Notes: generated by a model not told the origin, from the letters alone. 64,000 bases of DNA from an uncultured delta proteobacterium (GCA_963709745.1 CAVPXN010000005.1:4673-68672); one strand, 5' to 3'. Shown: positions 10,319 through 26,978, counted from the stretch's first letter. A program made the numbers and translations.

Positions 10319-10824
10319 TGCACACGTATTGGTTGTTCAGACCCTGACCACTGCCGAGGTCTTTGCATATATTGTATTCAAACCGGTTAGATAATCGTCC
10401 TATCTGTTTCGATTTGTATTTGTTTGCAGATAGAAAGACAGGAGAACAATTATAGAACTTACAGAGAAAGTATCGTGAATGATAGGAAAATTTCACCAAT
10501 ATTTATTCTCCTGCCTGTTCAGCATGCTGATTAAAAAAAAGACGGCTATTTTTGTAAAAAGCTCAGACTCTTTTTGACAGTAATTTAAAAAACGATAAGT
10601 GGGTCATGGTGGCTAGGTTAAGCATTTAAGACAAAAAGCAAATTACAACTCTTCCTGAATCTTTTAAAAATCACCAATTTTCTCACAATCATATTTTAAG
10701 AATTATTGCCGTAATAAATGTCCACTGGCAATCTCAACGATTTAAGCAAAGCTGCAAGTTAACACTATTCCTAATAGAGTAGATTTGCCTACTCCCTTGA
10801 AATTGTTCAGAAATGGAGTAACTG

Positions 10825-10884
10825 ATCTCGCACCATAACCAAAGAACACCTCTCAAAAGGTTAACAGAACTCCGGCGAGAGATA
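10825..10884 (+). repeat. 60-bp direct repeat A, copy 1 (copy 2 at 26496..26555)
   Basis: ATCTCGCA(C/A)CATAACCAAAGAACACCTCTCAAAAG...CCGGCGAGAGATA; 5 mismatches counted by eye. Confidence 0.85.
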
Positions 10885-10902
10885 ACTTCTGTTAACCTTT
10901 TC
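10856..10902. terminator. Strong hairpin, possibly a bidirectional terminator
   Basis: AAAAGGTTAACAGAA ... TTCTGTTAACCTTTT, perfect 15-bp inverted repeat. Confidence 0.5.
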
Positions 10903-11229
10903 TTTATATGACTGTTAGCTACCAGATTAAATTTGAATATGGGCGTGGATTGTGCTAGATCTGCCTTCCGTTCCGATGAGTATTGTGTCGATGTGATTGT
11001 TGTTGACTAATTTTTTCAGGTCTGAACATTCGGGGGCAGTTCTTGTTTTGGGGGGTATTATTAGGGGTATCTTGCGGTTTTATGAAATATAAAACATATA
11101 AATAACAGTAATATGACTTGTATGTTCAATGGACTGCATCGCCACCAAAATAACGTAAGTCCTTGACTTAGCTCATATAAAGTCCGAATTGTTGCCCCCT
11201 GGTACATGATTTTGTACATCGGAGAGTAC

Positions 11230-11658
11230 ATGATTCGGACTTCTTTTTTTCTTCAACGGCACCCTCAGAGCGGTACAATCTACTTTCGCAGGGCCATTCC
11301 AAAGCGACACCGGCAATCCTTCAATGGCAAGGCCGAGATAAAGAAATCACTGCAAACTTACGATAAAAACATTGCCACGATTCGCGCCACAATGTTGAAT
11401 GCCAGGCTCGAGAGCAAATTTAATCAGCTTGAAGTCGATATGGGAGACAATCCTTTCTTAAGTAAAATCACCATTGACGAGCTTGATGTAAAATCCGGCA
11501 CGGTCAAGAGCCTTGATATTGATTACGGCGGCGATGTGGAGAAAGAACTACAGGCCCTCCATGAGGTCAATAAATTGCTCAGTCAATCGGTAAGATACAT
11601 CTCTCACTGCTGGACAACAGTCCTCCCGTTCATATTATTCAAAAATTATCTCGGATAG
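11230..11658 (+). pseudogene. Truncated DUF6538-type integrase N-terminus
   Basis: IYFRRAIPK...EIKKSLQTYD...A pattern of DUF6538; SD GGAGAG at 11221; no tyrosine-recombinase catalytic domain follows. Confidence 0.65.
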
Positions 11659-14055: not shown

Positions 14056-14946
14056 ATGTCAACACCTGATCTCAACTTGCTAATTACCCTTGATGTACTG
14101 CTTGCGGAAAGCAGTGTTGCACGCGCAGCAAAACGATTGCAGCTAAGCCCTTCTGCTATGAGCAGGGCACTGGCACGATTGCGCGAGACGACTGGCGATC
14201 CGATTTTGGTTAGGGCTGGACGCGGTCTTGTCCCCACACCCCGAGCGCTTGAACTCCGCAACCGAGTAAGTCAGCTCGTTCAGGGCGCAAAAGAGGTTCT
14301 ACGTCCTGCCGAGAAGCTTAATCTTAAACAGCTCGTCCGAACATTCACGCTACGGACCAGTGAAGGTTTTGTGGAGAACTTTGGAGCGGCTCTTATTGTT
14401 CGCATTAGCAAGGAAGCTCCCGGCGTGCGGCTGCGCTTCGTGCAGAAGCCGAACAAAGACAGCACACCACTTCGCGACGGGACCGTTGATCTCGAAACTG
14501 GCGTTGTGGAGGAGACGACGAGTCCGGAGGTGCGTGCGCGGACTTTGTTCCGAGACAGATACATTGGCGTTGTGCGGATAGGGCACCCGCTGACTCGGAG
14601 TGAAATTACTCCTGCCCGTTATGCGACCGGCAGACATATCAGCGTCTCAAGGCACAGTCTAGATAAGGAACCGATAGATGAAGCCTTGGAGCCGTTTGGG
14701 GTGGAACGGGAAATCGTCGTCACTATTGTCGGTGGCTTCTCGACCGCGGTGGCGCTTTCTCGAAAATCCGATCTGATAGCCAGCGTTCCCGAGCGCCACA
14801 CGGGGAACCTGCGCATCGGAATGCATAGCTTCACCCTTCCATTCTCCGTACCGGAGTTCACGGTTTCAATGCTTTGGCACCCAAGGCTGGATGCTGACCT
14901 GGCGCATCGTTGGCTGCGCGAGTGCGTTCGGGACGCATGCGCCTGA
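14056..14946 (+). CDS. LysR-family regulator, divergent from the MFS gene
   Basis: DLNLL...SVARAAKRLQLSPSAMSRALARLR HTH plus substrate-binding domain. Confidence 0.95.
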   Translation: MSTPDLNLLITLDVLLAESSVARAAKRLQLSPSAMSRALARLRETTGDPILVRAGRGLVPTPRALELRNRVSQLVQGAKEVLRPAEKLNLKQLVRTFTLRTSEGFVENFGAALIVRISKEAPGVRLRFVQKPNKDSTPLRDGTVDLETGVVEETTSPEVRARTLFRDRYIGVVRIGHPLTRSEITPARYATGRHISVSRHSLDKEPIDEALEPFGVEREIVVTIVGGFSTAVALSRKSDLIASVPERHTGNLRIGMHSFTLPFSVPEFTVSMLWHPRLDADLAHRWLRECVRDACA

Positions 14947-15167
14947 AACTCATCAAAAAATTAGACAAACAGAAGATCTGACTGTCACCACCGAAAGAAA
15001 ACGGACCCATGAACATTTCGGCCGAACGAGTGGCGCTCAAATAAAAAGAACTTTGGCAGGTAGAACAAGTATTTCGGGACGTCAAGTCAGTACTGGACAC
15101 CAGACCTGTTTTTCATAAGCGGGATGAAACAATTCGAGGCCATGTGCTTTTCAGCTTCAGACTAATA

Positions 15168-15369
15168 ATGAAAGCCATTCGATGGACATCTAGGTGAGTA
15201 GCCAGAATTGCAACTTATAATGAACCCACTCCCACGCCAGGCAACCACGAAGTGGTCATCCGCGTACATGCCGCCTCCTTGTAATTTCGCGACCAAGCCA
15301 TCCTGGATGGACAATATCGTGACGCAGTTCAATCGAATGGCATCCCGCTTTCGGATGGCGCGGGCGAAA
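15168..15369 (+). pseudogene. MDR-family (zinc-type ADH-like) oxidoreductase N-terminal remnant
   Basis: EPTPTPGNHEVVIRVHAASL*FRDQAILDGQY...IPLSDGAGE, with two in-frame stops; truncated. Confidence 0.7.
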
Positions 15370-15554
15370 GGGCGGCTCCCACAGAACTCCACATTAACAT
15401 TGCCGTTTCGAAGGTAAGATACCTTCGTCAATTATCAGAGTTGATAGATCTACTGTGCAGGTCCTGAAGAAGTTGTCCTATCAACATAAATTGGCCGTTT
15501 TTGCCATTCAAAAACCAATATAACCCTGGCAACAAAAAACAAAATTTGAATCCC

Positions 15555-15625
15555 AGATCTTTCCAGATAATCCACCGAGACATTTGCTCCATTTCTGACC
15601 ACCGTCGGCGTTGATACTACTTTCC
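15555..15625 (+). repeat. 71-bp direct repeat B, copy 1 (copy 2 at 26620..26690)
   Basis: AGATCTTTCCAGA...GAGACATTTGCTCCATTTCTGACCA(C/T)CGTCGGCGTTGATACTACTTTCC; 3 mismatches counted by eye. Confidence 0.9.
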
Positions 15626-16098
15626 AATTTTTCGTCTAACGACTCCGAACAAGTCTCAGTTACTGTCAACCACGTTGCCTAACGCTTCTGTCGAAGTGAC
15701 CAACAAATACTTTTTGGAACAATCTGGGACCGGCGACAAGTTAAAAAGTGATAGGCATTTGACCTTTTGCAAACCAGAAATTCACAGTAGTTGTCTCAAC
15801 TCAACTTGAAGCGTTGATAGAATATTAAGACCTTCGAGGTGGCAATATTAACCGCACAACTTGAATCGGATTATGAACATATACCTTGTATTTGTTCTCT
15901 GAGGTGCTTTTTTACCAAAAAAGGTCAGGAAAAAATTGTGATAAGACAGCGAATCACCCATATCTAATCGAAATACCCACCCATATGAACCCAACAATTA
16001 TCGTTCTACGATGCCGTTTAGGAAAACGGAGTTCAAAAGAAATTGATCAAGAAGACTCACCTGATTGAACCTCGAACAGTTAATTTTATGTAATTTTA

Positions 16099-16127
16099 TT
16101 GACATTATATTTTATATTAATTATTTT
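16099..16127 (+). promoter_or_regulatory. Putative sigma70 promoter of the Lrp-epimerase operon
   Basis: TTGACA-N17-TATTTT within a very AT-rich leader. Confidence 0.45.
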
Positions 16128-16169
16128 TTTACTATTTTAATCTAATATAATAAAATTTCTTGAAAGAAT

Positions 16170-16667
16170 ATGGACCTTAAAGAGATTGATAATATCGACA
16201 GGCAAATGATCAAACTGCTTTCTGAAGATGGTCGTATGCCCGCTAAAGACATAGCAACCAAACTAAACGTTTCGGCCCCAACCATTCACTCCAGGTTAAA
16301 TTCTCTAATCAGGAGAGGGATACTCAAGGTAGCAGGATTGGTCGATACCTTTACGGTAAAGAATACGATGGTCGCCATCATTGCCATCAATGTGCACGAA
16401 AATGGCAAAATGGGACAGGTGATTGATCAGCTGATGGAATTTGATAATGTCCATTGGGCCGTTGCTGTGACGGGCCGCTACGACATTTTTGTTGAAGTTA
16501 TCGTGACCGAAGGAATTGAGTGGATGTTTAAGTTTTTTGAAGAGCAGATGAGTAAAATTGAAGGTATCAGTCATTCTGAATCCTTCATGGTGACGAATGT
16601 GCGTAGGAAATGGACGCTCCTTCCACCAAATATCAAAGGGTGGATACCTGAAAAGGAAAAAACATGA
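16170..16667 (+). CDS. Lrp/AsnC-family regulator
   Basis: IDRQMIKLLSEDGRMP...IATKLNVSAPTIHSRL HTH; VTGRYDIF ligand domain. Confidence 0.95.
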   Translation: MDLKEIDNIDRQMIKLLSEDGRMPAKDIATKLNVSAPTIHSRLNSLIRRGILKVAGLVDTFTVKNTMVAIIAINVHENGKMGQVIDQLMEFDNVHWAVAVTGRYDIFVEVIVTEGIEWMFKFFEEQMSKIEGISHSESFMVTNVRRKWTLLPPNIKGWIPEKEKT

Positions 16668-17728
16668 AATTAACAAACATGACCGTATGGAAAGAAGATT
16701 TAGAGCTCACGCGTCCCTATACAATTGCCTATGAAACAGTAAGTTCTGTTGAAAACTTGTTTGTTCTACTTGAAACAGATAACGGTATTACCGGGATTGG
16801 AGCAGGTTCACCGGCTGAAGATGTCACCGGCGAAACCATTTGGGCAGGTGAGAAAGCCTTGGCCGACAATCTGGACACGGTTCTTCAGGGCAGAGATGTC
16901 AGATATTACCGATCAATGCTCCAGGAATTGGACAAAGTCCTGGCAAAGACACCTGCAGCTCTGGCGGCTGTAGATATAGCACTTCATGACCTCGTTGCCA
17001 AAGCAATAGGCCTGCCTCTGGTAGATCTTCTTGGTCGAGTCCATAAATCCCTGCCGACTTCTATTACCATTGGAATCAAGCCTGTTCAAGAGACCCTGGA
17101 GGAAGCTCGCGAATACCTGGCCAGGGGATTTTCTATCCTGAAAATTAAAACAGGACTTGATGTGGAGCAGGATATAGAACGGATCCTTCGTCTCCGTGAA
17201 ACATTTAAGTCTGGCGTACGTATGAGGGTAGATGCCAACCAGGGTTATGGCGTCAAAGAATTTCAGAAGTTTTTTGAAAAAACTTCAGGTCTGATTGAGT
17301 TCGTAGAACAACCACTCAAGGCTATGGACCATGAGGGAATGAGATCCCTCCCGGACGCAGTTCGCAGGTTTTCGGCTGCAGATGAAAGTCTGCTTCACCC
17401 TGGAACAATAATCGATCTTCTCAGTCATCCTCAGCCTTTTGGTATTTTTAATATCAAGCTGATGAAATGTGGTGGTATTGCACCGGGGCTTGAGATCGCC
17501 GCTATGGCAGCCCATGCCGGTATTGACCTGATGTGGGGATGTATGGATGAGAGCATAATCAGCATCGCCGGAGCGCTCCATGCCGCCCTGGCGTCGAGAG
17601 CCACAAAATACTTAGACCTTGATGGAAGCCTGGACCTGGCACGTGATATTGTAAATGGTGGATTCATCCTGGAAGATGGATGGCTCAGAACGATAGATGA
17701 ACCTGGATTGGGAGTAAAAAGAATTTGA
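16664..17728 (+). CDS. Dipeptide epimerase / N-acyl-amino-acid racemase (enolase superfamily, L-Ala-D/L-Glu epimerase or DgcA-like)
   Basis: KIK catalytic motif, DANQG, EQP, DES, NIKLMKCGG, DLDG. Confidence 0.92.
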   Translation: MKLTNMTVWKEDLELTRPYTIAYETVSSVENLFVLLETDNGITGIGAGSPAEDVTGETIWAGEKALADNLDTVLQGRDVRYYRSMLQELDKVLAKTPAALAAVDIALHDLVAKAIGLPLVDLLGRVHKSLPTSITIGIKPVQETLEEAREYLARGFSILKIKTGLDVEQDIERILRLRETFKSGVRMRVDANQGYGVKEFQKFFEKTSGLIEFVEQPLKAMDHEGMRSLPDAVRRFSAADESLLHPGTIIDLLSHPQPFGIFNIKLMKCGGIAPGLEIAAMAAHAGIDLMWGCMDESIISIAGALHAALASRATKYLDLDGSLDLARDIVNGGFILEDGWLRTIDEPGLGVKRI

Positions 17729-18909
17729 TGAAAGCTAACAATACGAATTCCGAAATTGAACCGGACCCGGATAACAGCAAATGTTTAGCCCTTGGATCGG
17801 CTGTGGTCCTGACCAATGGTAGTCTTACTCATGTCGATGCGAAAACAGCTCATGGTCTGATCCGCGGAACCGAACGATTTGATATCAGAGGTATTATCGA
17901 CCATAACAGTGCAGGTCAGGATGCCGGTCAGATCCTGGATGGGATTCATCGCTCAATTCCGGTCTATGCAGACATTGACGCGTATATTGCCATCACAGGC
18001 AAAAAGCCCAATTATGCCATAATCGGTGTTGCCCTGTGCGGCGGTCGGCTGAATGAACAATGGCAGGCTCTGGTATTGAGCATCCTTGTTCAGGGGATAT
18101 CTATTGTTAATGGGATGCATATGTTGCTGGGTGATATTCCGACTTTTAATGATTCCGCTCGGCAAAATAATGCCACCATCATTGATATTCGCAGGCCTAA
18201 GCCTTTCGATCAGCTTCATTTCTGGTCAGGTAAAATCTTTGAGATGAAAATTCCGCGCCTGGCCGTTCTCGGAACCGATTGCGCACTGGGAAAACGAACC
18301 ACGGCTCGAATGATTGTAGAGACCTGCAAAAAGCTGGGAATGAGTACGGAAATGATTTATACCGGTCAGACCGGCTGGCTCCAAGGCAATCGTTATGGAT
18401 TTATTCTGGACACCACGGTCAATGATTTTGTGAGTGGTGAGGTGGAGGACGCCATTGTCAGGTGCGAACAGGAAGCCAGACCGGACCTTATTGTCGTAGA
18501 AGGCCAGTCCGGGATGAGAAATCCCCAAGGGCCCTGCGGTCCCGAGATCATAGTTTCGGGAAATATCAAGGGCGTGGTTCTCCAACACACGCCGTTTAGA
18601 GAATTCTATGACGCAACGGAAGCATCGGGTTGTTATCTGCCGGATATCGAGAGTGAAATAAAACTAATCGAAATGTACGGGACATCTGTTATTGCAGTGA
18701 CCCTTAACGGTACGGGCGGCAGCAAAGAAGAACTGTTGTCTTACAGTAGGGCCCTCGAGAAAAGAATAGGTATCCCTGTTATCTGTCCCATTGAGGAAAC
18801 CATGAACAAAATAATGCCGGTACTTGAGAGATTTATCTTGGATCATGACCGTTTGCCCGATACCACAGCAAGGTCACCGAGAAAAGATAAAGAGGTCTGC
18901 CATGACTGA
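17725..18909 (+). CDS. DUF1611-domain protein (DgcN-like putative D-amino-acid N-acetyltransferase)
   Basis: KTAHGLIR, GTDCALGKRTT, TGQTGWLQG, VEGQSG motifs of DUF1611. Confidence 0.88.
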   Translation: MMKANNTNSEIEPDPDNSKCLALGSAVVLTNGSLTHVDAKTAHGLIRGTERFDIRGIIDHNSAGQDAGQILDGIHRSIPVYADIDAYIAITGKKPNYAIIGVALCGGRLNEQWQALVLSILVQGISIVNGMHMLLGDIPTFNDSARQNNATIIDIRRPKPFDQLHFWSGKIFEMKIPRLAVLGTDCALGKRTTARMIVETCKKLGMSTEMIYTGQTGWLQGNRYGFILDTTVNDFVSGEVEDAIVRCEQEARPDLIVVEGQSGMRNPQGPCGPEIIVSGNIKGVVLQHTPFREFYDATEASGCYLPDIESEIKLIEMYGTSVIAVTLNGTGGSKEELLSYSRALEKRIGIPVICPIEETMNKIMPVLERFILDHDRLPDTTARSPRKDKEVCHD

Positions 18910-20530
18910 TCTGCTTATTAAAAACGCTCGGGTGATCGATGGAAGTGGGGCACCGTCTTTTGCAGCAGACATCGCTGTCTCGGACGGAATAATTACCCAT
19001 GTGGCTCCTGCAATCGATATGCCCTGCCTGGAAACCATTGATGCAGCCGGACTGGTTGTCAGTCCTGGCTTTATAGACATGCACACCCATTCCGATTTTT
19101 CCCTCCTTCTGGAGCCTACTGCTGGAAGCCGGGTCATGCAGGGAATAACTACAGAGGTTACCGGTAACTGCGGAGGTTCTCCTGGCCCGATCCTCGACTC
19201 TGGCAGCGAACCATTCATGGAGTATATGTCAGACTTGGGCGTGCTTTATAAGCGAAAGTTATCGCCGGAAGACTGGAACTGGAAAACCCTGGATGATTAT
19301 TATGCTCGACTGGCCATCAACGGCACGGCTGTAAATCTGGTGCCTCTGGTTGGTCATTCGACACTGCGTGCCAACGTCATGGGATACCAGAACAGAGTAC
19401 CCAATCACCAAGAGATGGAACAGATGAAGCGCCTGTTGACAATAGAACTTGAAAAAGGAGCCTTTGGGTTGTCATCGGGTCTTATCTATCATCCAGGGGC
19501 CTTTGCTACACAAGATGAATTGGCTGGACTTGCTGCAGTAGTCAAAGATTTTGACGGTATTTATTCAACACATATGCGTAGTGAAGGCAAATTCCTCTTC
19601 GAAGCCTTGGATGAGACTTTGGCCGTTGCTCGGAAATCCGGTGTGTCTGTTCAGATTTCCCACTTAAAATGTGAGACCCCGGCCATGTGGGGAAAAGGTC
19701 GGTTGCTTCTTGAAAAAATTCATCAGGCCAGAAAAGAAGGGATACGAGTCCATTTTGACCAATACCCCTATATTGCTTATCACACTGGTTTGTTGGAAAT
19801 TTTCCCCATCTGGGCCAAGGAGGGTGGCTCTAAGAGGATGATCGAAATTCTCAGCAACGCCGAAACCCAACAGAAAGTAATGGCTGAGATGAAATCACCA
19901 CCTGATGACTGGGACAATCCAATGGAGGATCTGGGCTGGGACCGAATACAGATTATGGGGTATACCCAACCGGACAATCTGTCACTGAATGGTCTCACGG
20001 TTGCAACCCTGGCTGAAATCAGAGGAATTGAACCTCTGAAGGCTGTTGTCCAGGTCTTCTGTGAAGAAAGTGGTAGCCTGTCAATGATTGTGTTCGCCAT
20101 GAACGAACAGGATGTAGTGACGATCATGCAGGATCCCAATGGAATGATTGGTTCTGACGGACGTTCGGTAACACCCGGCGGCCCCGCGAGTGGGTCTCCT
20201 GTCCACCCACGATTTTACGGAACGTTTGCCAGGGTTCTGGGAAACTATGTCCGGGAGAAAAAGGTTATCTCCCTGGAGCAGGCCGTTCATAAAATGACCA
20301 GCCTGCCTGCAGAAAAACTCGGGTTAAAAGACCGAGGTCTGATCAAGAAAGGTATGGCGGCGGATCTGGTCCTTTTTGACCCGGATACGGTCCAGGACGT
20401 GGCCACTTTTGATGATTCACATCGATATGCCGAGGGGATTTCCTATGTGTTTGTCAATGGAAAGGCGGTTGTCCTTGACGGCAAACACACAGGAAATCTT
20501 CCTGGGAAACGGCTTTTTAGGCATGCCTGA
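18902..20530 (+). CDS. N-acyl-D-amino-acid deacylase (D-aminoacylase family amidohydrolase)
   Basis: PGFIDMHTHSD, TTEVTGNCG, THMRSE, ISHLK, GSDG, HPRFYGTF; start MTDLLIK couples to the upstream stop. Confidence 0.92.
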   Translation: MTDLLIKNARVIDGSGAPSFAADIAVSDGIITHVAPAIDMPCLETIDAAGLVVSPGFIDMHTHSDFSLLLEPTAGSRVMQGITTEVTGNCGGSPGPILDSGSEPFMEYMSDLGVLYKRKLSPEDWNWKTLDDYYARLAINGTAVNLVPLVGHSTLRANVMGYQNRVPNHQEMEQMKRLLTIELEKGAFGLSSGLIYHPGAFATQDELAGLAAVVKDFDGIYSTHMRSEGKFLFEALDETLAVARKSGVSVQISHLKCETPAMWGKGRLLLEKIHQARKEGIRVHFDQYPYIAYHTGLLEIFPIWAKEGGSKRMIEILSNAETQQKVMAEMKSPPDDWDNPMEDLGWDRIQIMGYTQPDNLSLNGLTVATLAEIRGIEPLKAVVQVFCEESGSLSMIVFAMNEQDVVTIMQDPNGMIGSDGRSVTPGGPASGSPVHPRFYGTFARVLGNYVREKKVISLEQAVHKMTSLPAEKLGLKDRGLIKKGMAADLVLFDPDTVQDVATFDDSHRYAEGISYVFVNGKAVVLDGKHTGNLPGKRLFRHA

Positions 20531-20587
20531 CCGGATAGGGAAGGCAGTGTTTTTATTAATCTGGTGATGAATATTAAGGAGAAGAAG

Positions 20588-22159
20588 ATGAAAAAGCGTC
20601 TGGGTAGTTTTTTGCTGATGCTGGCAATTCTGTTTACAATGACATCGATACAGGCCAAGGCCGAAAAAGTATTGAACATTGCAGGCAACCCCAATGAACT
20701 GGGGGTCACAACTTTCAACCCTATTAAGGTTGAACTGAATCACGATGCCATGACACTGATCTATGATAAATTTATGGAATGGGGCGCTGATGGAAAATTT
20801 TATCCGGCCTTGGCCGAATCCTGGACCATCAGTGACGATGGCCTTACCTGGAAAATGGTTTTAAAACAGGGTGTTAAGTTTCATGATGGCTCTGCATTTA
20901 ATTCAGAGGTAGCCAAATGGTTTCTGGAAGAGATGAAGACCGGGCCGTCTGCCTATATGGTAGGCGCTATTGATAATGTCGAAATCACCGGACCCTATAC
21001 GATTACTCTGCACCTGAAGAATCCTGAACCCAATATGTTTTTTAATATGGCTCAGGATTTCATGTGTATTCCCAGCATGGTCGCCTATAAAAAATATGGT
21101 GAGGAGTTTGGTATTAAGCATGTTGTGGGGTCCGGGCCATATAAGTTTGAATCCTGGTCTCCGGGAAATGAACTGGTACTGGTGAAAAATCCAGACTATA
21201 CTTGGGGGCCCTCTATCGTCAGCAATAAAGGGCCTGCTCGTATTGATAAAATTGTCTACAAGGATACCAAGGAAGAATCGACAAGGTTTTTGGAACTCAA
21301 GACTGGCAAGGTCGACGTTGTTTATGCCGTGCCTACCATGTTCATCAGCAAGATTGAAGAGGACAAATCCCTTCGGATCATCAGAATGCCTGGCGATGAA
21401 CTGTATCATATGGTCATGAACACCCAGTCCCCGCCGTTAGATAACGAGCTGGTCAGAAAGGGAATTGCCCTTGCTGTGGATCAGGAGAGTATCACGAAAA
21501 ATGTGTTTGCCAATGCCGGAAAACCTGCTTTTACCTATTTGATCGATTCTCTTGCGGAAAGTAAGATAGACCCGAAAGATGAGATCCATTTTGATCTTGA
21601 AGGGTCCAAAGCAGCACTTGAAGAAGCCGGATGGAAGATGGGTAAGGATGGGATACGGGAGGACAAAGATGGTAATAAGCTGACCTTGAAAATGGTGGCT
21701 AAAAACGAATCCTCATACCGGCGTGCAGCTGAGGTGATCCAGGCACAACTGGCAAAAGTCGGCGTTGAAGCGAAAATAACGTTAATGGATCCGAGCTCCA
21801 TCCGGGCCTATTATAAAAAAGGCGAGCACCAGCTGGCAATTCGTTCCTATAACTGGGAAAATGCCGATATTCTGGAGTGGTTTCTGAACTCAAAACGACT
21901 GGGCTACCCCAATGCGGCTATGTGGCATGATAATGAGTCAGATTATCTGATGCAAAAAGCGATGACCCGATCTCGGTCACAGGAAGATCGGGAAGCGAAT
22001 TTCAAGGAATACCACACGTATGTCCTCAATAAGTATGTCTGGGCTCCCTTTTACCTCCCGGCCAAGGTTTTTGCAGTTGGCAGTCGTGTGATTTTGCCAA
22101 AAAACAGTCGTGCCAGGAAGTTCATGAAAATCGAGATACTGGACTGGGATTTGAAATAA
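20588..22159 (+). CDS. Peptide ABC transporter solute-binding protein (family 5, DppA/OppA-like)
   Basis: Signal peptide; LAESWTISDDG, VKFHDG, VGSGPYKF. Confidence 0.92.
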   Translation: MKKRLGSFLLMLAILFTMTSIQAKAEKVLNIAGNPNELGVTTFNPIKVELNHDAMTLIYDKFMEWGADGKFYPALAESWTISDDGLTWKMVLKQGVKFHDGSAFNSEVAKWFLEEMKTGPSAYMVGAIDNVEITGPYTITLHLKNPEPNMFFNMAQDFMCIPSMVAYKKYGEEFGIKHVVGSGPYKFESWSPGNELVLVKNPDYTWGPSIVSNKGPARIDKIVYKDTKEESTRFLELKTGKVDVVYAVPTMFISKIEEDKSLRIIRMPGDELYHMVMNTQSPPLDNELVRKGIALAVDQESITKNVFANAGKPAFTYLIDSLAESKIDPKDEIHFDLEGSKAALEEAGWKMGKDGIREDKDGNKLTLKMVAKNESSYRRAAEVIQAQLAKVGVEAKITLMDPSSIRAYYKKGEHQLAIRSYNWENADILEWFLNSKRLGYPNAAMWHDNESDYLMQKAMTRSRSQEDREANFKEYHTYVLNKYVWAPFYLPAKVFAVGSRVILPKNSRARKFMKIEILDWDLK

Positions 22160-22175
22160 TTTGATTTTTTCTGCT

Positions 22176-22219
22176 CCTTTCTGATCTCTCAAAAACTTTT
22201 TTCAAAGAGATCAGAAAGG
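22176..22219 (+). other. Intercistronic stem-loop after the binding-protein gene
   Basis: CCTTTCTGATCTCT...AGAGATCAGAAAGG, perfect 14-bp arms; usual position for an mRNA-stabilising or attenuating hairpin in ABC operons. Confidence 0.55.
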
Positions 22220-22233
22220 AAAGAAAAACATAA

Positions 22234-23180
22234 GTGATCCGGAGCGGAAGACCCATGTGGCAATTTTTTTTACGCCGTTTACTGTTAATGATACCGATAT
22301 TCTTCGTGTTGTCGGTTATCATTTTCTCCCTGATTCACATCGTTCCGGGAAATCCTCTGGATAATCTCATGGGGCCAGGGATGACCAAAGCCTATGAACA
22401 GGAAATGGTGAAGAAATACAACCTGGACAAACCGCTTCCTGTGCAATATCTCAAATGGCTGAACAACATGCTTCATGGTGATCTGGGGAGCTCAATTATA
22501 GAGAAGCGGCTTGTAACGGAGTTACTTTTGCACCATCTGCCCTACAGCCTTTCGCTGGGACTCACGGCCATTGCCCTTTCCTTTGTGCTTGGGGTGTCCA
22601 TGGGTATTATTTCCGCGGCAGCCAAAAACACCATCTTTGATCACCTGGCCATGCTGGTTGCATTATTCGGGGTCACCATCCCCGCCTTTTGGCTGGGGCT
22701 GATTTTCATCCTGATTTTTGCGGTGTGGCTGAACTGGCTTCCGGTTTCAGGTTCAGGCACACTGTCCTCGCTGATTCTTCCCGCAGTCACCGTAGCACTG
22801 GGCGGTGCGGGTCTCATCGCGAGGGTCACACGGGTGGCCATGCTGGAGGTAGCCTCCAAGGATTTTATTGTCATGCTCCATGCCAAGGGGCTTGGGAAAA
22901 AAGCCATCCTGCTGAAACATGTCTTAAGGAACGCATTGATACCGGTTATCACTATCCTCGGGTTGCGTATTGGATGGGTGTTGGGCGGGGCAGTAACGTG
23001 GAAATCGTTTTTTCTCGACCAGGGCTTGGACAGTTATTAATTTCCGCTTTGTTCAGGAGGGATTATTCGGTCATTCAGGGCGCTATGCTTCTTCTGGCCA
23101 TGGGTATCATACTAGGGACATTCCTGGCCGACATGCTGTATGCTTTTGCAGATCTCAGGGTAAGGGATCAAAACCATTGA
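22234..23180 (+). pseudogene. DppB-like permease, frameshift near 22997
   Basis: GAVT continues in another frame as VEIVFSRPGLGQLL...RRDYSVIQG. Confidence 0.85.
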
Positions 23181-23208
23181 GACGAGCGGTCAATTTTTGC
23201 AATCAATA

Positions 23209-24091
23209 ATGGAAAACACTACGAACCAAAACCAGATAATACCTCCCGCTAATCGGTGGGTCAGGCGTTTGAAAAAATTAAAAGACAACAAGGCCGGGCT
23301 CTTAGGTCTCATTATCATTGCCGGGCTTATCATTATTGCGCTGTTTGCAGATTTCATCGCGCTCTATTCCTATAAGGCCCAAGACTGAATATCATGAACA
23401 TCCCGCCTTCAATGGATCATATCATGGGCACGGATGAGTTCGGAAGGGATGTGTTCAGCCGCATTATTTTGGGTTCACGAATTTCAGTTTATGTGGGTGT
23501 TGTTTCAGTTGGATTGTCCGTATTGATCGGCTCTCTGTTGGGTGCTCTTGCTGGATACTACGAGGGATGGCTGGATAGAGTTCTTTCTACTGTTACAGAC
23601 TTGACCTGGTCTCTGCCGGAAATTCTAGTGGCCCTTCTCCTTGTTGCCGTGGTGGGTGCTGGGGTTGAGTGTGTCATTATCGCCATTGCTCTGACCTATT
23701 GGGCCTAATATGCCCGGCTGATCAGGGGACAGATACTGATGCTCAAAAATGAGATTTATGTAGAGGCTACTAGTTCGTTAGGAGCGACAGATTTTACGAT
23801 TTTGTTCAAACATCTTTTCCCCAATGCAATCGCACTGGTGATCGTAGCCGCGACTATCGGGATCGGACAGGCTATCGTACTGGAGGCAACACTTGGTTTT
23901 CTGGGAATGGGAGCGCAGAAGCCACTCCACAGCTGGGGTGCCATGATGAGTAACGGTACCGCATATCTGTTTATCTCACGTGGGTGATTATATTTCCGGG
24001 CCTCGCCATGATGATCACAGTTTTTGGATTCAATCTGTTCGGGGACGTGCTGGTGGATATCATGGATATCCGAGAGGATACCATCAAATGA
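23209..24091 (+). pseudogene. DppC-like permease, frameshifts near 23385 and 23979 and a nonsense codon at 23706
   Basis: [22 protein letters not shown] and HLFPNA segments are spread over four ORFs. Confidence 0.85.
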
Positions 24092-25060
24092 GCCTCATGG
24101 TGGTTGATAATGTATCCGTGGAATTCAAAACTAGTGATGGGGTTGTAGAACCTCTGAGTGGTATCAGTTTTAAGATAGATGCCGGTGAGATTCTAGGGCT
24201 GGTGGGGGAGACTGGCTCTGGCAAATCCGTTACAGCTCAGGCGATCATGGGGCTGCTGCCTTTTCTTAACGGCAGAGTTTCCTCTGGCCGGATCTGTTTT
24301 AGGGATCAGGATTTGCTTGCCATATCTGAAGACCAGTATCAAAAAATAAGGGGAAACCATATTTCTCTGATATCTCAGAACCCCATGACCTCGCTCGACC
24401 CGGTTATAAAGTGGGAGATCAGATCGTGGAAGGGTTGAGCAAGCATGTAACTATTTCCAAGGATGATGCTGTAAAAAGAGCCATTAATGTAATGACCTCA
24501 TTAGGCATTCCCAATTCAGCAAAGGTGTTTTTACAATATCCACATCAACTCTCGGGGGGACTAAAGCAGAGAATTGTCATTGCTATGGGTTTATGTGCTG
24601 ACTCCTATCTGTTGATCGCTGACGAACCCACAACAGCTCTGGATGTTACTGTTCAGGCGCAGATAGTTGAACTGTTTAGAAAAACGGTGGTGCAGAGAAA
24701 TATTGGCCTGATCATGATTACCCACGATTTGGGCGTGATTTCAAACCTTTGTGACACAGTGGTTGTCATGTATGCGGGACATATCGTTGAAAAAGGGAGA
24801 GTGAAAGCGGTGTTTGCTAACTCTTTGCATCCGTATACCCGGGCGTTGCTCAAGTGCATCCCTAAATTCGGTATGCCGGAGAGATCGCTTAAGGCCATTC
24901 AAGGCAATGTTCCCAGCGTAAGCACTTTTCCAAGTGGATGCCGGTACCATCTCGCTGTCCTGACATGAAGCCGATTTGTATGACAGAAGCCCCAAAAATC
25001 TTGCAGGCAGGAAACGGCATAGAAGTTAAATGCTACCAGTTCGGCCCCAACTGGAGATAA
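24088..25060 (+). pseudogene. DppD-like ATPase, frameshifts near 24409 and 24951
   Basis: GETGSGKS, QLSGGLKQR, ADEPTTALD; C-terminal GCRYH(P)RCP restored only by a frame change. Confidence 0.85.
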
Positions 25061-25065
25061 TAGCT

Positions 25066-26061
25066 ATGAATTCGTTAGTTGAGGTCCGGCATCTGTCCAA
25101 ATTTTTTCCAGTAACTGGTGGGTTGATGCAACGGAGGATCGGTGAGGTCAAAGCAGTCAACGATATCTCGTTTGACATTTATAAAGGAGAATCTTTGGGG
25201 GTCGTTGGCGAGTCTGGATGTGGAAAATCAACCTTTGCCAGGCTGATTCTAAATCTGATCAGGCACACCTCCGGGCACATTCTCTATGATGGTCGGGATG
25301 TCAACCGTATCAGTAAAACCCAACTCCGTGAACTGAGGCGAAAAATGCAGATGGTGTTTCAGGATCCCCATTCCTCCCTGGATCCCCGTATTTCGATATA
25401 CCGAAGTCTAGATGAGGTGTTTACGATTCAAAAAGAGAAGATCTCCAGACAAAAGATAAATGAACGGATCCTGGAACTTCTTGGCATGGTTGGCCTTAAA
25501 CCGGAGCATTGCCGATCCTACCCCCACCAGCTATCGGGAGGACAGAAGCAGCGAGCCGTCATCGCTCGGGCTCTGGCCATGATCCCCGAATTCATCATAC
25601 TTGACGAACCCACCGCAGCACTGGACGTGTCGGTCCAGGCTCAGATTATTCTCCTGCTCCAGCAATTGGGTGATCAGTTTGGCATTACTTACCTTTTTAT
25701 TTCCCATGACCTTGCTCTGGTGGATTATTTCTGTCAGCGAATAATTGTCATGTACCTGGGCAGAATAGTGGAGATCACGCCCGCCGATCTCTCCCGGCAG
25801 AAGCCAATGCATCCATACACAAAGGTGTTGATGGAAAGTGTGTTCGTGGCAGATCCTCTGGCAGAACCCAAAGAACCCAGGATTGAGGGTGATGTGCCAA
25901 GTCCCTTTAACCTCCCCGAGGGATGCGTATTTGAGAGTCGTTGTGAATATGCCCAAAAGATCTGTAAAGAAGATTCTCCGGAACTACGAGAATCCATATC
26001 GGGTAGATTTGTGGCCTGTCATTTTCCATTAATCTGTTCGATTAATGATACCCCGGTTTGA
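25066..26061 (+). CDS. DppF-like peptide ABC ATPase (intact)
   Basis: GESGCGKS, QLSGGQKQR, LDEPTAALD, GCVFESRC, ACHF. Confidence 0.93.
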   Translation: MNSLVEVRHLSKFFPVTGGLMQRRIGEVKAVNDISFDIYKGESLGVVGESGCGKSTFARLILNLIRHTSGHILYDGRDVNRISKTQLRELRRKMQMVFQDPHSSLDPRISIYRSLDEVFTIQKEKISRQKINERILELLGMVGLKPEHCRSYPHQLSGGQKQRAVIARALAMIPEFIILDEPTAALDVSVQAQIILLLQQLGDQFGITYLFISHDLALVDYFCQRIIVMYLGRIVEITPADLSRQKPMHPYTKVLMESVFVADPLAEPKEPRIEGDVPSPFNLPEGCVFESRCEYAQKICKEDSPELRESISGRFVACHFPLICSINDTPV

Positions 26062-26495
26062 GTGGCCCCGTTTTTGTGGAGAGTAAAGATTTTTTCTGGC
26101 AATCTTCAATTTAATACCATACCCGTCAGGTGAACCTTCCTGATAGTGTCGACCTACTTGTTTCAATTGAATTGTCCAAAAATGGAGCAACTGTAAAGTA
26201 GAGCTTACCAAAGTTATGTTGCGAGTTGAACTATCTGCCTGAAATTATTTCGCTTTTCAAGCTATTTACGGAATGTATTTTTTGTTAATTATTTCAATGT
26301 TTTATGTTGTTAATGGTAATGATTCCTCTTCTCCAAGCAACATAACTTTTGAGCTATTTCTTACCTCCCCGTCAGCCTCTTGCGAGGAAGGAAAAGAAGG
26401 ACATCCAAAGAAAAAGTAGGAAGAAGAGATAAATACCTACAACTACAAAAGGAGGGAGGAAAAGCAAACAGAGAAGAAAAGACACAGCAAAACTA

Positions 26496-26555
26496 ATCTC
26501 GCAACATAACCAAAGAACACCTCTCAAAAGTGCAACAGAACCCCGGCGAGAGATA
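26496..26555 (+). repeat. Direct repeat A, copy 2
   Basis: See 10825..10884. Confidence 0.85.
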
Positions 26556-26619
26556 TCTACTGAAGTTCTGGTTCTCATGAGCCCAAATACCTATCAACTT
26601 TTATTGTGCCGCCCATCCG

Positions 26620-26690
26620 AGATCTTTCCAGAAAATCAACCGAGACATTTGCTCCATTTCTGACCATCGTCGGCGTTGATACTACTTTCC
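26620..26690 (+). repeat. Direct repeat B, copy 2
   Basis: See 15555..15625. Confidence 0.9.
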
Positions 26691-26699
26691 TATCAACCG

Positions 26700-26978
26700 T
26701 TACTTGATCTTTTTCAGCAATCTCGAAATTGAAGTGGCATGCCATTCCCCTCCCCTGCGTGTCTGGTATCCGTGGTTGTTCATGTACTCGGTTATTTCTC
26801 GCAATGATATGCAACCTGTTGCCTTGGCCTCTTCAATATATTCAGTCATGTCCTTGGCGAACTTAGCCGCTTCATTCAATCGTACGGCATTGGCGTTAGT
26901 GGTATTCCCGCCGCCTGGTAGACGTTGCCCTTTCTGCAAGCATGGATTGCCCAACTGGATGCCATTACGTGGGGCCAT
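26700..26978 (-). pseudogene. Serine recombinase/resolvase C-terminal remnant
   Basis: GIQLGNP...SLREITEYMNNHGYQTRRGGEWHATSISRLL, the C-terminal DNA-binding tail of recombinase-family proteins; catalytic domain absent. Confidence 0.7.

Follow-up and report, generated by a model that had tools for sequence, protein, structure and literature searches.

The operon described here raises the question of which D-amino acid compound it is built to use. It lies in a 64,000-nucleotide window of DNA from an uncultured delta proteobacterium and encodes an Lrp regulator, an enolase-type epimerase, a DUF1611 protein, a D-aminoacylase-family hydrolase, and a Dpp-type ABC importer (Table 1). A sequence-only reading had proposed a variant of the DgcN/DgcA acetylation–racemisation route for D-glutamate, with the hydrolase acting on the L-product, or alternatively an operon for a different substrate. 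The general theme of a catabolic operon for D-amino acids or D-peptides, akin to DgcN/DgcA in its logic, holds; of the two proposals, the evidence favours the alternative of a different substrate.

Layout, coupling, and modules of the operon

All of the genes and families named in the sequence-only reading were recovered at their positions by Pfam and NCBIfam searches. The translational coupling of the Lrp, epimerase, DUF1611, and hydrolase genes, also claimed there, is seen at three junctions: the first is ATGA, with an overlap of 4 nt; the second is TGATG, with an overlap of 1 nt; and at the third, the DUF1611 and hydrolase genes share 8 nt. The importer set consists of an SBP_bac_5 binding protein, two permeases, and two ATPases.

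Table 1. Features of the operon and its flanks, with positions counted from the first nucleotide of the window.
Feature	Position	Strand	Details
Upstream copy of 79-nt direct repeat bracketing the operon	15550..15628	.	partner 26615-26693, 94% identical
Sigma-70-like promoter candidate, TTGACA-17-TATTTT	16099..16127	+	~43 bp 5' of Lrp start; consensus match only
Lrp/AsnC-family regulator, first gene of the operon	16170..16667	+	HTH_AsnC-type, AsnC_trans_reg
Dipeptide epimerase, predicted cationic (L-Lys-D/L-Arg) type, enolase superfamily	16664..17728	+	MR_MLE_N, MR_MLE_C
DUF1611 protein, Rossmann-like N domain and SIMIBI P-loop domain	17728..18909	+	Pfam DUF1611, DUF1611_N
D-aminoacylase-family zinc amidohydrolase, 542 aa, cytoplasmic, enlarged lid insert	18902..20530	+	Amidohydro_3
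Family-5 solute-binding protein, signal peptide, intact	20564..22159	+	SBP_bac_5; alternative ATG start 20588
Permease B (DppB/OppB type), disrupted	22234..23180	+	BPD_transp_1; 1-bp deletion ~22997
Permease C, disrupted	23209..24092	+	1-bp deletions ~23385, ~23979; CAA-to-TAA stop 23706-23708
ABC ATPase D, disrupted	24088..25060	+	1-bp deletions ~24405, ~24953
ABC ATPase F (oligo_HPY C-terminal region), intact	25030..26061	+	ABC_tran, oligo_HPY
Downstream repeat copy and relic serine-recombinase fragment	26615..26978	-	ORF 26700-26978; Recombinase PF07508, 1.1e-05

The regulator is a member of the Lrp/AsnC family that possesses both the AsnC-type HTH (PF13404, 1.7e-12) and the RAM ligand-binding domain (AsnC_trans_reg, PF01037, 3.2e-08); it shares 92% identity with the copy in a relative locus (L001) and reached no NCBIfam equivalog cut-off in the profile search. 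The promoter candidate falls within a short 5' stretch, from 16079 onwards, over which homology to the relatives' operons persists, and the count of sigma-70-like consensus sites in the region, this candidate included, is not above chance. On the downstream side, homology with the relatives' operons stops at 26034. The 79-nt repeat is regarded as dispersed repeat DNA and not as a specific element end because more than 15 copies of it occur genome-wide.

The full gene order recurs in at least seven other loci (L001, L002, L004, L006, L007, L009, and L031), which come from several genera of Desulfobacterales and from one metagenome contig and in which hydrolase identity falls as low as 58–62%; the arrangement is not a product of chance. 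Within the host's own order, the operon is rare, being found in 2 of 151 genomes, and its flanks are non-syntenic. The Lrp–epimerase–DUF1611 unit also occurs without the hydrolase in HRM2 (L028), Desulfobacter, and Bacteroidota loci; the hydrolase always adjoins an SBP5 importer, even where DUF1611 and the epimerase are lacking (L030, L032), and this hydrolase–importer module is elsewhere accompanied by an M20 peptidase and a 2-hydroxyacid dehydrogenase. The operon is composed of these two modules, which also occur apart. The gene-neighbourhood survey called for by the sequence-only reading showed that the linkage to the deacylase is conserved, within one clade only. The hydrolase as an obligate third step of the DUF1611–epimerase pair was considered and rejected, as it travels with the importer and the pair also exists without it.

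In other loci, the genes beside the pair encode enzymes that act on free D-amino acids or on basic amino acids, by releasing or consuming them. For instance, an exported beta-lactamase::D-aminoacylase fusion, an M15 D-Ala-D-Ala dipeptidase, an M14 carboxypeptidase, a D-Ser-dehydratase-like enzyme, an arginase, a class-III aminotransferase, and an SBP3 amino-acid transporter (L010) were found beside it, and a D-amino-acid transaminase is its neighbour in the true dgc loci (L026 and L027).

The epimerase, the hydrolase, and the importer

The epimerase shares 75% identity with C0QM06 of Desulforapulum autotrophicum HRM2, named 'L-Lys-D/L-Arg epimerase', and 55% with 3RIT (E 3.9e-113), and it falls in one clade with C0QM06 in the tree (support 97/93). 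Lukk et al. (2012, PNAS 109:4122) reportedly found this specificity for C0QM06 in vitro. The hallmarks of a dipeptide epimerase are all present, including two catalytic lysines, K162 and K265, equivalent to K162 and K266 of 3RIT (PMC3965090), three metal ligands (D190, E215, and D240), and the DxD motif D318-L-D320, the ligands and the motif being invariant in the alignment; these catalytic and metal residues are identical in C0QM06 and in 3RIT/3RO6 of Methylococcus capsulatus. The DxD motif is also present in DgcA and does not discriminate between dipeptide epimerases and DgcA. The specificity determinants of 3RIT are R24, E51, and D296 (PMC3965090). The corresponding positions E24, A51-E52-D53, and D295 of the epimerase are identical to those of C0QM06, as are the motifs YTIAYET, GSPAEDVTGE, and GCMDESI, whereas 3RIT departs from both at positions 24 (Arg) and 51.

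By these sequence comparisons, the epimerase is an orthologue-level relative of a characterised cationic dipeptide epimerase, and epimerisation of L-Lys-L-Arg-type dipeptides is predicted from the database name of C0QM06. Its acidic specificity pocket (E24 and D295) points to a basic D-residue, namely, D-Arg, D-Lys, or D-Orn, as the target. The sequence-only reading had named a plain Ala-Glu epimerase as part of a result that would count against it; the enzyme is of the dipeptide-epimerase type. In HRM2, the C0QM06 gene likewise sits in an Lrp–epimerase–DUF1611 unit, although without the downstream hydrolase and importer that are present here. To our knowledge, the cationic epimerases (C0QM06 and 3RIT) have no assigned physiological role, and their DUF1611 partner has not been studied.

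The hydrolase (Amidohydro_3, 5.1e-32) has the N-acyl-D-Glu deacylase 3GIP (E 2.7e-80) and the D-aminoacylase 1M7J (3.2e-73) as its best solved relatives, with which it shares the amidohydrolase subtype and the Cys-bridged metal site. Its residues H61, H63, C90, H224, H254, K256, Y288/Y290, D419, and R437 align with those of both enzymes, and all features of subtype V are kept, namely, the HxH motif, the bridging Cys, two His, the catalytic Asp, and the alpha-carboxylate Lys/Tyr/Arg. The roles of these residues have been described in D-aminoacylases, where the metal-bridging Cys is the family hallmark (PMC12149444). Judged by these residues, the catalytic apparatus is intact; D-stereospecific hydrolysis is predicted, and action on an L-product is unlikely. 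Unlike the known D-aminoacylases of 480–496 aa, the hydrolase has an alpha/beta lid approximately 50 residues longer and is embedded in a peptide-importer operon; the specificity-setting lid (residues 297–393) is not alignable with the solved enzymes, and NCBIfam PRK09061 is matched at 204.6, short of its cut-off of 340. The sequence of the hydrolase shows no signal peptide. Members of the D-aminoacylase family also reportedly cleave L-Xaa-D-Yaa dipeptides (Cummings et al., 2009).

The binding protein (SBP_bac_5, 6.5e-84) and ATPase F (ABC_tran, 8.7e-37; oligo_HPY, 5.1e-16) are 97% and 91% identical, respectively, to those of L001; the former has no close characterised or informative relative, its best solved structure matching at E 5e-39. 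The downstream peptide ABC transporter of the sequence-only reading is there with its five genes, but damage to permease B, permease C, and ATPase D had been missed. Compared with Desulfopila sp. IMCC35006, the assembled sequence has five 1-bp deletions and one nonsense codon spread over these three genes (Table 1). The deletion in permease B changes AACCG to AACG, and the L001 protein aligns to the gene by tblastn in two pieces, in frames 1 and 3. The importer is probably dead in this genome, with the enzymes and the binding protein intact; because it is broken, the pathway may not operate in this genome at all.

Proposed salvage of basic D-residues and a possible route on dipeptides

The reading that we favour, with a probability of about one half, is a salvage route for peptides or N-acyl compounds with a basic D-residue at their end, where the hydrolase works for the importer and D is inverted to L by the DUF1611–epimerase pair. 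It supposes an Lrp-controlled operon built from two modules and gained horizontally by a Desulfocapsaceae-type sulfate reducer. In the first, a Dpp/Opp-type ABC importer would bring small peptides or N-acyl amino acids with a C-terminal D-amino acid into the cell, and the cytoplasmic zinc hydrolase would cleave the bond preceding that residue. In the second, the cationic dipeptide epimerase and the DgcN-like DUF1611 protein would convert the D-residue to L, either directly on L-Xaa-D-Yaa dipeptides or, by analogy with DgcN/DgcA, through re-acylation of the free D-amino acid by DUF1611, after which the epimerase would flip the alpha-carbon. Beside a D-amino-acid acylase, a D-specific deacylase would create a futile cycle unless the two enzymes differed in the acyl groups that they prefer, and the hydrolase presumably avoids this by preferring peptidyl over acetyl substrates. 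For this route, we infer the substrates, the DUF1611 chemistry, the order of steps, and the avoidance of the cycle. The logic is like that of murein-peptide recycling in E. coli, where a peptide with a D-residue is imported and trimmed, the L-D dipeptide is epimerised, and ordinary peptidases finish the process; mpaA-ycjG is the carboxypeptidase–epimerase arrangement of this pathway. The epimerase of mpaA-ycjG, which works with an Mpp/Opp importer, is specific for L-Ala-D/L-Glu and not cationic, and we know of neither a DUF1611 protein nor a D-aminoacylase in that system, both of which are present in the operon.

The DUF1611 protein (Pfam DUF1611, 4.4e-53; DUF1611_N, 7.4e-21) has the two-domain fold of DgcN and P-loop-like motifs. 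Its AF2 model (pLDDT 85.6) matches 2OBN, 2G0T, and 7XRJ (DgcN; TM 0.62–0.72), followed by dethiobiotin synthetase. Because the nearest neighbours of this P-loop NTPase fold outside its own family use ATP, ATP-dependent ligation is, from the model, as possible as acyl-CoA transfer. This bears on a rather unlikely alternative, a pure dipeptide route without re-acylation, in which L-Xaa-D-Yaa would be epimerised to L-L and left to housekeeping peptidases, or the hydrolase would be an L-D dipeptidase, and DUF1611 would have another role, such as that of an ATP-dependent ligase joining L-Xaa to a free D-residue for the epimerase, or a kinase or regulatory one. Consistent with it are the kinship of the SIMIBI fold with an ATP-using synthetase, an epimerase clade characterised on true dipeptides (by protein name), the peptide-type importer, and the Cytophagales loci, where the pair comes after the M14 carboxypeptidase in a manner resembling mpaA-ycjG. 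However, DgcN, the only characterised DUF1611 member, is named an N-acetyltransferase (NF041892; 7XRJ title); the pair of some relatives stands with the SBP3 free-amino-acid transporter, the arginase, or the aminotransferase and not with peptide genes; and the hydrolase would also undo the L-Xaa-D-Yaa product of a ligase.

Relation to the D-glutamate route and less likely readings

DgcN and DgcA are a D-glutamate catabolic pair (Yu et al., 2023, ISME J 17:537), and as in the operon, a DUF1611-fold enzyme adjoins an enolase-superfamily racemase/epimerase. An Lrp-type regulator is also found near dgcN in Ruegeria, and DgcA shares the DxD motif; the gene order is reversed. The DUF1611 protein is a distant relative of DgcN, with 24–27% identity to the Ruegeria and Vibrio proteins and the motifs G182xDCxxGK189..T192, T212GQTG, D233F, and E258GQ invariant between them. 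The shared architecture, regulator type, and DxD motif favour the main proposal of the sequence-only reading, a D-glutamate variant in which the amidohydrolase deacylates the L-product, but it is very unlikely. The scores are far under the NCBIfam cut-offs for DgcN (NF041892, equivalog; 109.5 bits vs. 480) and for DgcA (NF042940, N-acetyl-D-Glu racemase; 143.5 bits vs. 400). The epimerase has 29% identity to DgcA, which is a far outgroup on the longest branch of the tree, more distant than YkfB. A pocket residue of the operon epimerase is acidic and not basic: a Glu aligns with R24 of YkfB, which we take to be the Arg binding the glutamate side chain, and in DgcA this loop has an Arg at the preceding position. 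The D-amino-acid transaminase of the true dgc loci is missing from the operon, which has a D-aminoacylase and a peptide importer instead, and the hydrolase retains all D-aminoacylase residues and is genetically tied to the importer rather than to the pair. Asp at DUF1611 residue 295, where DgcN has Arg, speaks weakly against an acidic substrate. This residue is Lys or His in the clade with a K24 epimerase, a charge covariation that is taken to favour the basic-residue salvage reading but spans three clades only and is confounded by phylogeny.

In an anabolic direction, which is improbable as well, the operon would be nature's counterpart of the industrial racemase/D-acylase process. An L-basic amino acid would be N-acylated, or an L-L dipeptide imported, then epimerised, and the D-specific hydrolase would free a D-basic amino acid that could serve, for example, in signalling, as a toxin, or in the cell wall. 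Were DUF1611 L-specific, the three coupled enzymes would make up a full path from L to D without a futile cycle, and in vitro, a racemase combined with a D-acylase does drive amino acids to the D-form (PMC12149444). However, an importer and an amino-acid-type regulator are typical of catabolism, and the hydrolase–importer module is accompanied elsewhere by the peptidase and dehydrogenase described above. The core pair, moreover, lacks any D-acylase in many genomes, and DgcN works on the D-isomer. Least credible is a non-peptide ligand (nickel, an opine-type metallophore, or another N-acyl compound) processed by the operon enzymes, since the NikA, CntA, and Opp5A/NikA types that are the binding protein's best NCBIfam matches lie far below their cut-offs (181 vs. 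393; 146 vs. 800), and the hydrolase, although carbohydrate de-N-acetylases (9KB1/9KB3) are among its family relatives in a structure search, keeps the residues holding the amino-acid alpha-carboxylate and is partnered by an epimerase of a characterised dipeptide clade.

The operon is thus an uncharacterised relative of the established D-glutamate route: its DUF1611 protein shares motifs and fold with DgcN, and the theme of D-amino-acid utilisation is common to both, but its substrate is probably a basic residue, whereas that of DgcN–DgcA is D-Glu.

Gene order and conservation of the operon

The operon is a tightly packed row of genes on one strand, all assigned by Pfam and NCBIfam, in which a regulator, an epimerase, a DUF1611 protein and a hydrolase are followed by a five-gene importer. 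The first four genes overlap successively by ATGA, TGATG and 8 nt. These assignments and overlaps therefore bear out the gene row and the coupling described in the sequence-only reading, whose interpretation as a variant acetylation-racemisation pathway for D-amino acids is supported in part: the D-amino-acid theme stood, while its D-glutamate form did not. With Rfam at gathering thresholds, no riboswitch or other RNA element was found in or before the operon. The region of approximately 1.2 kb from the LysR gene to the Lrp gene (14946-16170) is without an ORF of at least 150 aa and without an Rfam match, and its conservation with the operons of relatives is limited to the last ~90 bp.

Features of the operon, its flanks and the neighbours of the DUF1611-epimerase pair at comparison loci (positions are those of the window; L numbers denote loci from other genomes or contigs)
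Feature	Position or locus	Strand	Basis or setting
Candidate sigma-70-like site TTGACA-17-TATTTT	16099-16127		consensus match
Lrp/AsnC regulator	16170-16667	+	Pfam/NCBIfam
MR_MLE enolase-superfamily enzyme (epimerase)	16664-17728	+	Pfam/NCBIfam
Epimerase residue 24 codon	~16733-16735
DUF1611_N + DUF1611_C protein	17728-18909	+	Pfam/NCBIfam
Amidohydro_3 hydrolase	18902-20530	+	Pfam/NCBIfam
Family-5 solute-binding protein	20564-22159	+	Pfam/NCBIfam
Two Dpp/Opp-type permeases and two ATPases with oligo_HPY tail	up to 26061	+	Pfam/NCBIfam
DUF6538 ORF	11206-11658		operon flank
Relic serine-recombinase fragment	26700-26978		operon flank
Exported beta-lactamase-family::D-aminoacylase fusion	L017, L019		neighbour
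M15 D-Ala-D-Ala dipeptidase	L022		neighbour
M14 carboxypeptidase	L021, L023		neighbour
D-Ser-dehydratase-like enzyme and FMN dehydrogenase	L016, L020		neighbour
Arginase	L005		neighbour
Class-III aminotransferase	L014		neighbour
SBP3 amino-acid ABC transporter	L010		neighbour
D-amino-acid transaminase	L026, L027		neighbour, true dgc loci

A scan of representative genomes gave 25 loci with a DUF1611 relative, and the epimerase adjoins it in 22 of them, including those of Bacteroidota, where the order is reversed. The full order from Lrp to the importer is present at L001 (Desulfopila sp. IMCC35006), L002, L004, L006, L007 and L009, and also on the metagenome contig L031, with a hydrolase of 58% identity. 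Strain HRM2 (L028), the source of the characterised epimerase, has Lrp-epimerase-DUF1611 only, and this core without the hydrolase module was also found in Desulfobacter, Desulfobacula and Bacteroidota loci. At L030 and L032, where DUF1611 and epimerase genes are missing, hydrolase homologues (55-56% identity) lie directly 5' of this five-gene importer, with an M20 peptidase and a 2-hydroxyacid dehydrogenase encoded before them. The modules are thus also found apart, so that the operon is a fusion of two modules with the hydrolase tied to the importer. As a crude lower bound on co-occurrence, at least 20 of 56 epimerase-bearing contigs of at least 10 kb are equal in length to a contig among the hydrolase matches. 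The stand-alone module (L030:5339-15422; L032:112-10230) consists of the M20 peptidase, a dehydrogenase of the D-isomer type, a 543-aa D-aminoacylase-type hydrolase and the Dpp importer, and one of its source records is named Alkalispirochaeta odontotermitis.

What the neighbours of the pair have in common is that they release or use free D-amino acids, and those of the Desulfobacterales clade hint at arginine or ornithine metabolism. In Chitinophagales, proteins of ~830 aa with a signal peptide, encoded beside DUF1611-epimerase at L017:820-3330 and L019:5266-7755 (- strand), join a beta-lactamase-family domain (PF00144) to a D-aminoacylase-type Amidohydro_3 domain; this domain make-up suggests an exported D-peptide hydrolase with two heads. 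In both true dgc loci, L026:6812-9755 (Ruegeria megaplasmid) and L027:6809-9656 (Vibrio plasmid), dgcN-dgcA is followed by a D-amino-acid transaminase gene.

A proposed peptide-salvage route and its enzymes

The favoured mechanism, to which a probability of about 0.5 is given, is peptide salvage in which the hydrolase feeds a D-to-L inversion by the DUF1611-epimerase pair. The importer would bring in N-acyl amino acids or small peptides whose C-terminal residue is in the D form and probably basic, the hydrolase would then release this residue, and the pair would turn it into the L form. For the inversion, the DUF1611 protein may re-acylate the free D-residue and so enable the epimerase, as in DgcN/DgcA, the known D-glutamate pair of a DUF1611-family enzyme and an enolase-superfamily racemase, or the epimerase may work directly on L-Xaa-D-Yaa.

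The DUF1611 protein has a strong Pfam DUF1611 match, scores only 109.5 bits where the NCBIfam DgcN cut-off is 480, and is 24-27% identical to DgcN, with which it shares the invariant motifs G182xDCxxGK..T192, T212GQTG, D233F, E258GQ and R291. Its AlphaFold model (pLDDT 85.6) matches 2OBN, 2G0T (TM0796) and 7XRJ, the last of which is titled 'N-acetyltransferase DgcN', followed by dethiobiotin synthetase, cyclic-DPG synthetase, MeaB and MinD, and thus combines a Rossmann-like domain with a SIMIBI P-loop domain. The model fits acyl-CoA and ATP chemistry alike: it is plausible that the protein shares the chemistry class of DgcN, and possible that it uses ATP-dependent carboxylate activation instead. 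The second option corresponds to a pure dipeptide route with the DUF1611 protein as an ATP-dependent ligase, which is considered unlikely as an alternative to peptide salvage.

By sequence comparison, the nearest kin of the epimerase are the cationic dipeptide epimerases. It is 75% identical to C0QM06 of Desulforapulum autotrophicum HRM2, named 'L-Lys-D/L-Arg epimerase' in UniRef, and the clade holding both is supported at 97/93 in a maximum-likelihood tree. Among solved structures, the dipeptide epimerase 3RIT/3RO6 of Methylococcus capsulatus comes nearest (E 3.9e-113, 55% identity); in 3RIT, the catalytic residues are K162 and K266 and the specificity residues are R24, E51 and D296 (PMC3965090). 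The epimerase has K162 and K265, the metal ligands D190, E215 and D240, and D318xD320, and its specificity sites E24, A51-E52-D53 and D295 are the same as those of C0QM06. In YkfB of B. subtilis, the glutamate side chain is bound by an Arg at position 24; Glu at this position together with Asp295 is consistent with a basic side chain. The DxD motif was dropped as a discriminator between dipeptide epimerases and N-acetyl-amino-acid racemases, as DgcA also keeps DLDG.

The D-Glu variant put forward in the sequence-only reading, with a DgcA-type racemase, is considered improbable. A DgcA identity was ruled out by an NCBIfam score of 143 bits against a cut-off of 400; identity to two proteins that PGAP names DgcA, encoded in the true dgcN-dgcA loci of Ruegeria sp. 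TM1040 and Vibrio tritonius, is 29%, and DgcA forms the most distant outgroup of the tree, beyond YkfB. Residue 295 of the DUF1611 protein (codon ~18610-18612) is Asp in the clade with epimerase E24 or D24 and Lys or His in the Bacteroidota clade, where the epimerase has K24, and DgcN has Arg at 295 with Arg23 in DgcA. DUF1611 position 295 and epimerase position 24 could form a shared side-chain specificity determinant, in a comparison that covers three clades only and is confounded by phylogeny.

The best-matching solved relatives of the hydrolase are the N-acyl-D-glutamate deacylase 3GIP (E 2.7e-80), a Klebsiella-type D-acylase and the A. faecalis D-aminoacylase 1M7J. Its H61, H63, C90, H224, H254, K256, Y288/Y290, D419 and R437 align with their key residues, namely, the metal ligands including the bridging Cys, the catalytic Asp and the alpha-carboxylate holders. 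The bridging Cys marks this amidohydrolase subtype, and the central lid region is reported to govern specificity (PMC12149444). The lid of the hydrolase (residues 297-393) has ~50 additional residues and fails to align with the solved enzymes. With its key residues kept, the hydrolase likely acts on a D-amino acid that bears an N-acyl or aminoacyl group, a prediction that does not extend to the side chain or the kind of acyl group. No signal peptide was found in the hydrolase, so its substrate would be imported material. The earlier worry that a D-specific deacylase would create a futile cycle stands; the cycle would be avoided only if peptidyl substrates are preferred to acetyl ones by the hydrolase, a preference that its enlarged lid might confer. 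An anabolic L-to-D route, like the industrial process with a racemase and a D-acylase, is given very little weight beside salvage of imported peptides. Even less credence is given to a non-peptide ligand of the importer. The search for the ligand of the binding protein among its solved relatives returned generic family-5 proteins only (E 5e-39 or weaker).

History of the operon in the host genome

Homology to the operons of relatives is limited to 16079-26034, and the flanks are non-syntenic. The operon is single-copy, and the host genome was found to have no second DUF1611 gene and no second epimerase or hydrolase of these types. Of 151 genomes sampled from the host's order, just 2 contain any DUF1611 relative, and a genome of the same genus has none. 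Two direct repeats bracket the operon, one of 79 nt (94% identical; 15550-15628 and 26615-26693) and one of 72 nt (89% identical; 10820-10891 and 26491-26562). The 79-nt repeat was rejected as the ends of a mobile element: with more than 15 copies scattered over several contigs, it counts as repeat DNA and does not demonstrate a discrete element. Relative to L001, dS is 0.68-0.81 for Lrp, epimerase, DUF1611 and hydrolase and 0.21-0.42 for the five transporter genes; the two halves therefore differ in history, which suggests a recombination inside the operon with a break near the junction of the hydrolase and binding-protein genes.

The importer also carries lesions that were absent from the sequence-only reading, which described a peptide ABC transporter. 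Compared with the orthologous operon of L001 (88-91% nucleotide identity), five single-base deletions occur at approximately 22997, 23385, 23979, 24405 and 24953 across the permease genes permB and permC and the ATPase D gene; four of the five change CC to C, and two share the context ACCGTGG. In addition, permC has a nonsense codon (CAA to TAA at 23706-23708). The lesions are confined to these three genes, and the binding protein, ATPase F and the four upstream genes are intact. The dN/dS against L001 is 0.05-0.13 in every operon gene and 0.06-0.11 in the broken ones, and such low values even in broken genes therefore indicate either recent pseudogenisation or a local assembly error. Sequencing error as the source of the frameshifts is possible but disfavoured, as the remainder of the 64-kb window keeps long intact frames and the lesions include a base substitution. 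This copy of the operon is taken to be a recent acquisition whose transporter appears to be decaying, and the simplest account is a horizontal gain of the operon followed by decay of the importer.

Implications for D-amino-acid use in sediment anaerobes

In marine sediments, D-amino acids from bacterial walls and secreted products constitute a large and slowly degraded nitrogen pool. To our knowledge, the known routes of their use are mostly oxidative or specific to D-Ala or D-Glu, and cationic dipeptide epimerases have been characterised in vitro only. A tentative and rather doubtful proposal is that the core is a basic-amino-acid counterpart of DgcN/DgcA, in which the DUF1611 protein would N-acylate free D-Arg, D-Lys or D-Orn and the 'L-Lys-D/L-Arg epimerase' would physiologically be an N-acyl-D/L-basic-amino-acid racemase. 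If true, this would be the first physiological role for cationic dipeptide epimerases and an oxygen-independent route of D-Arg/D-Lys assimilation in sediment anaerobes, with the D-aminoacylase-importer module as a bolt-on feeder that frees D-Arg/D-Lys from peptides. The matched charge switches (epimerase 24 and 295, DUF1611 295) would then be a specificity code readable across the DUF1611 family.

The finding owes its value to a two-module operon that is conserved and makes a testable prediction of the substrate, rather than to this probably decaying copy. A conserved sulfate-reducer operon that imports D-terminated peptides and, without oxygen, inverts their basic D-residue would extend D-amino-acid use by a new branch and would give physiological roles to two orphan groups, the cationic dipeptide epimerases and the non-Dgc DUF1611 proteins.
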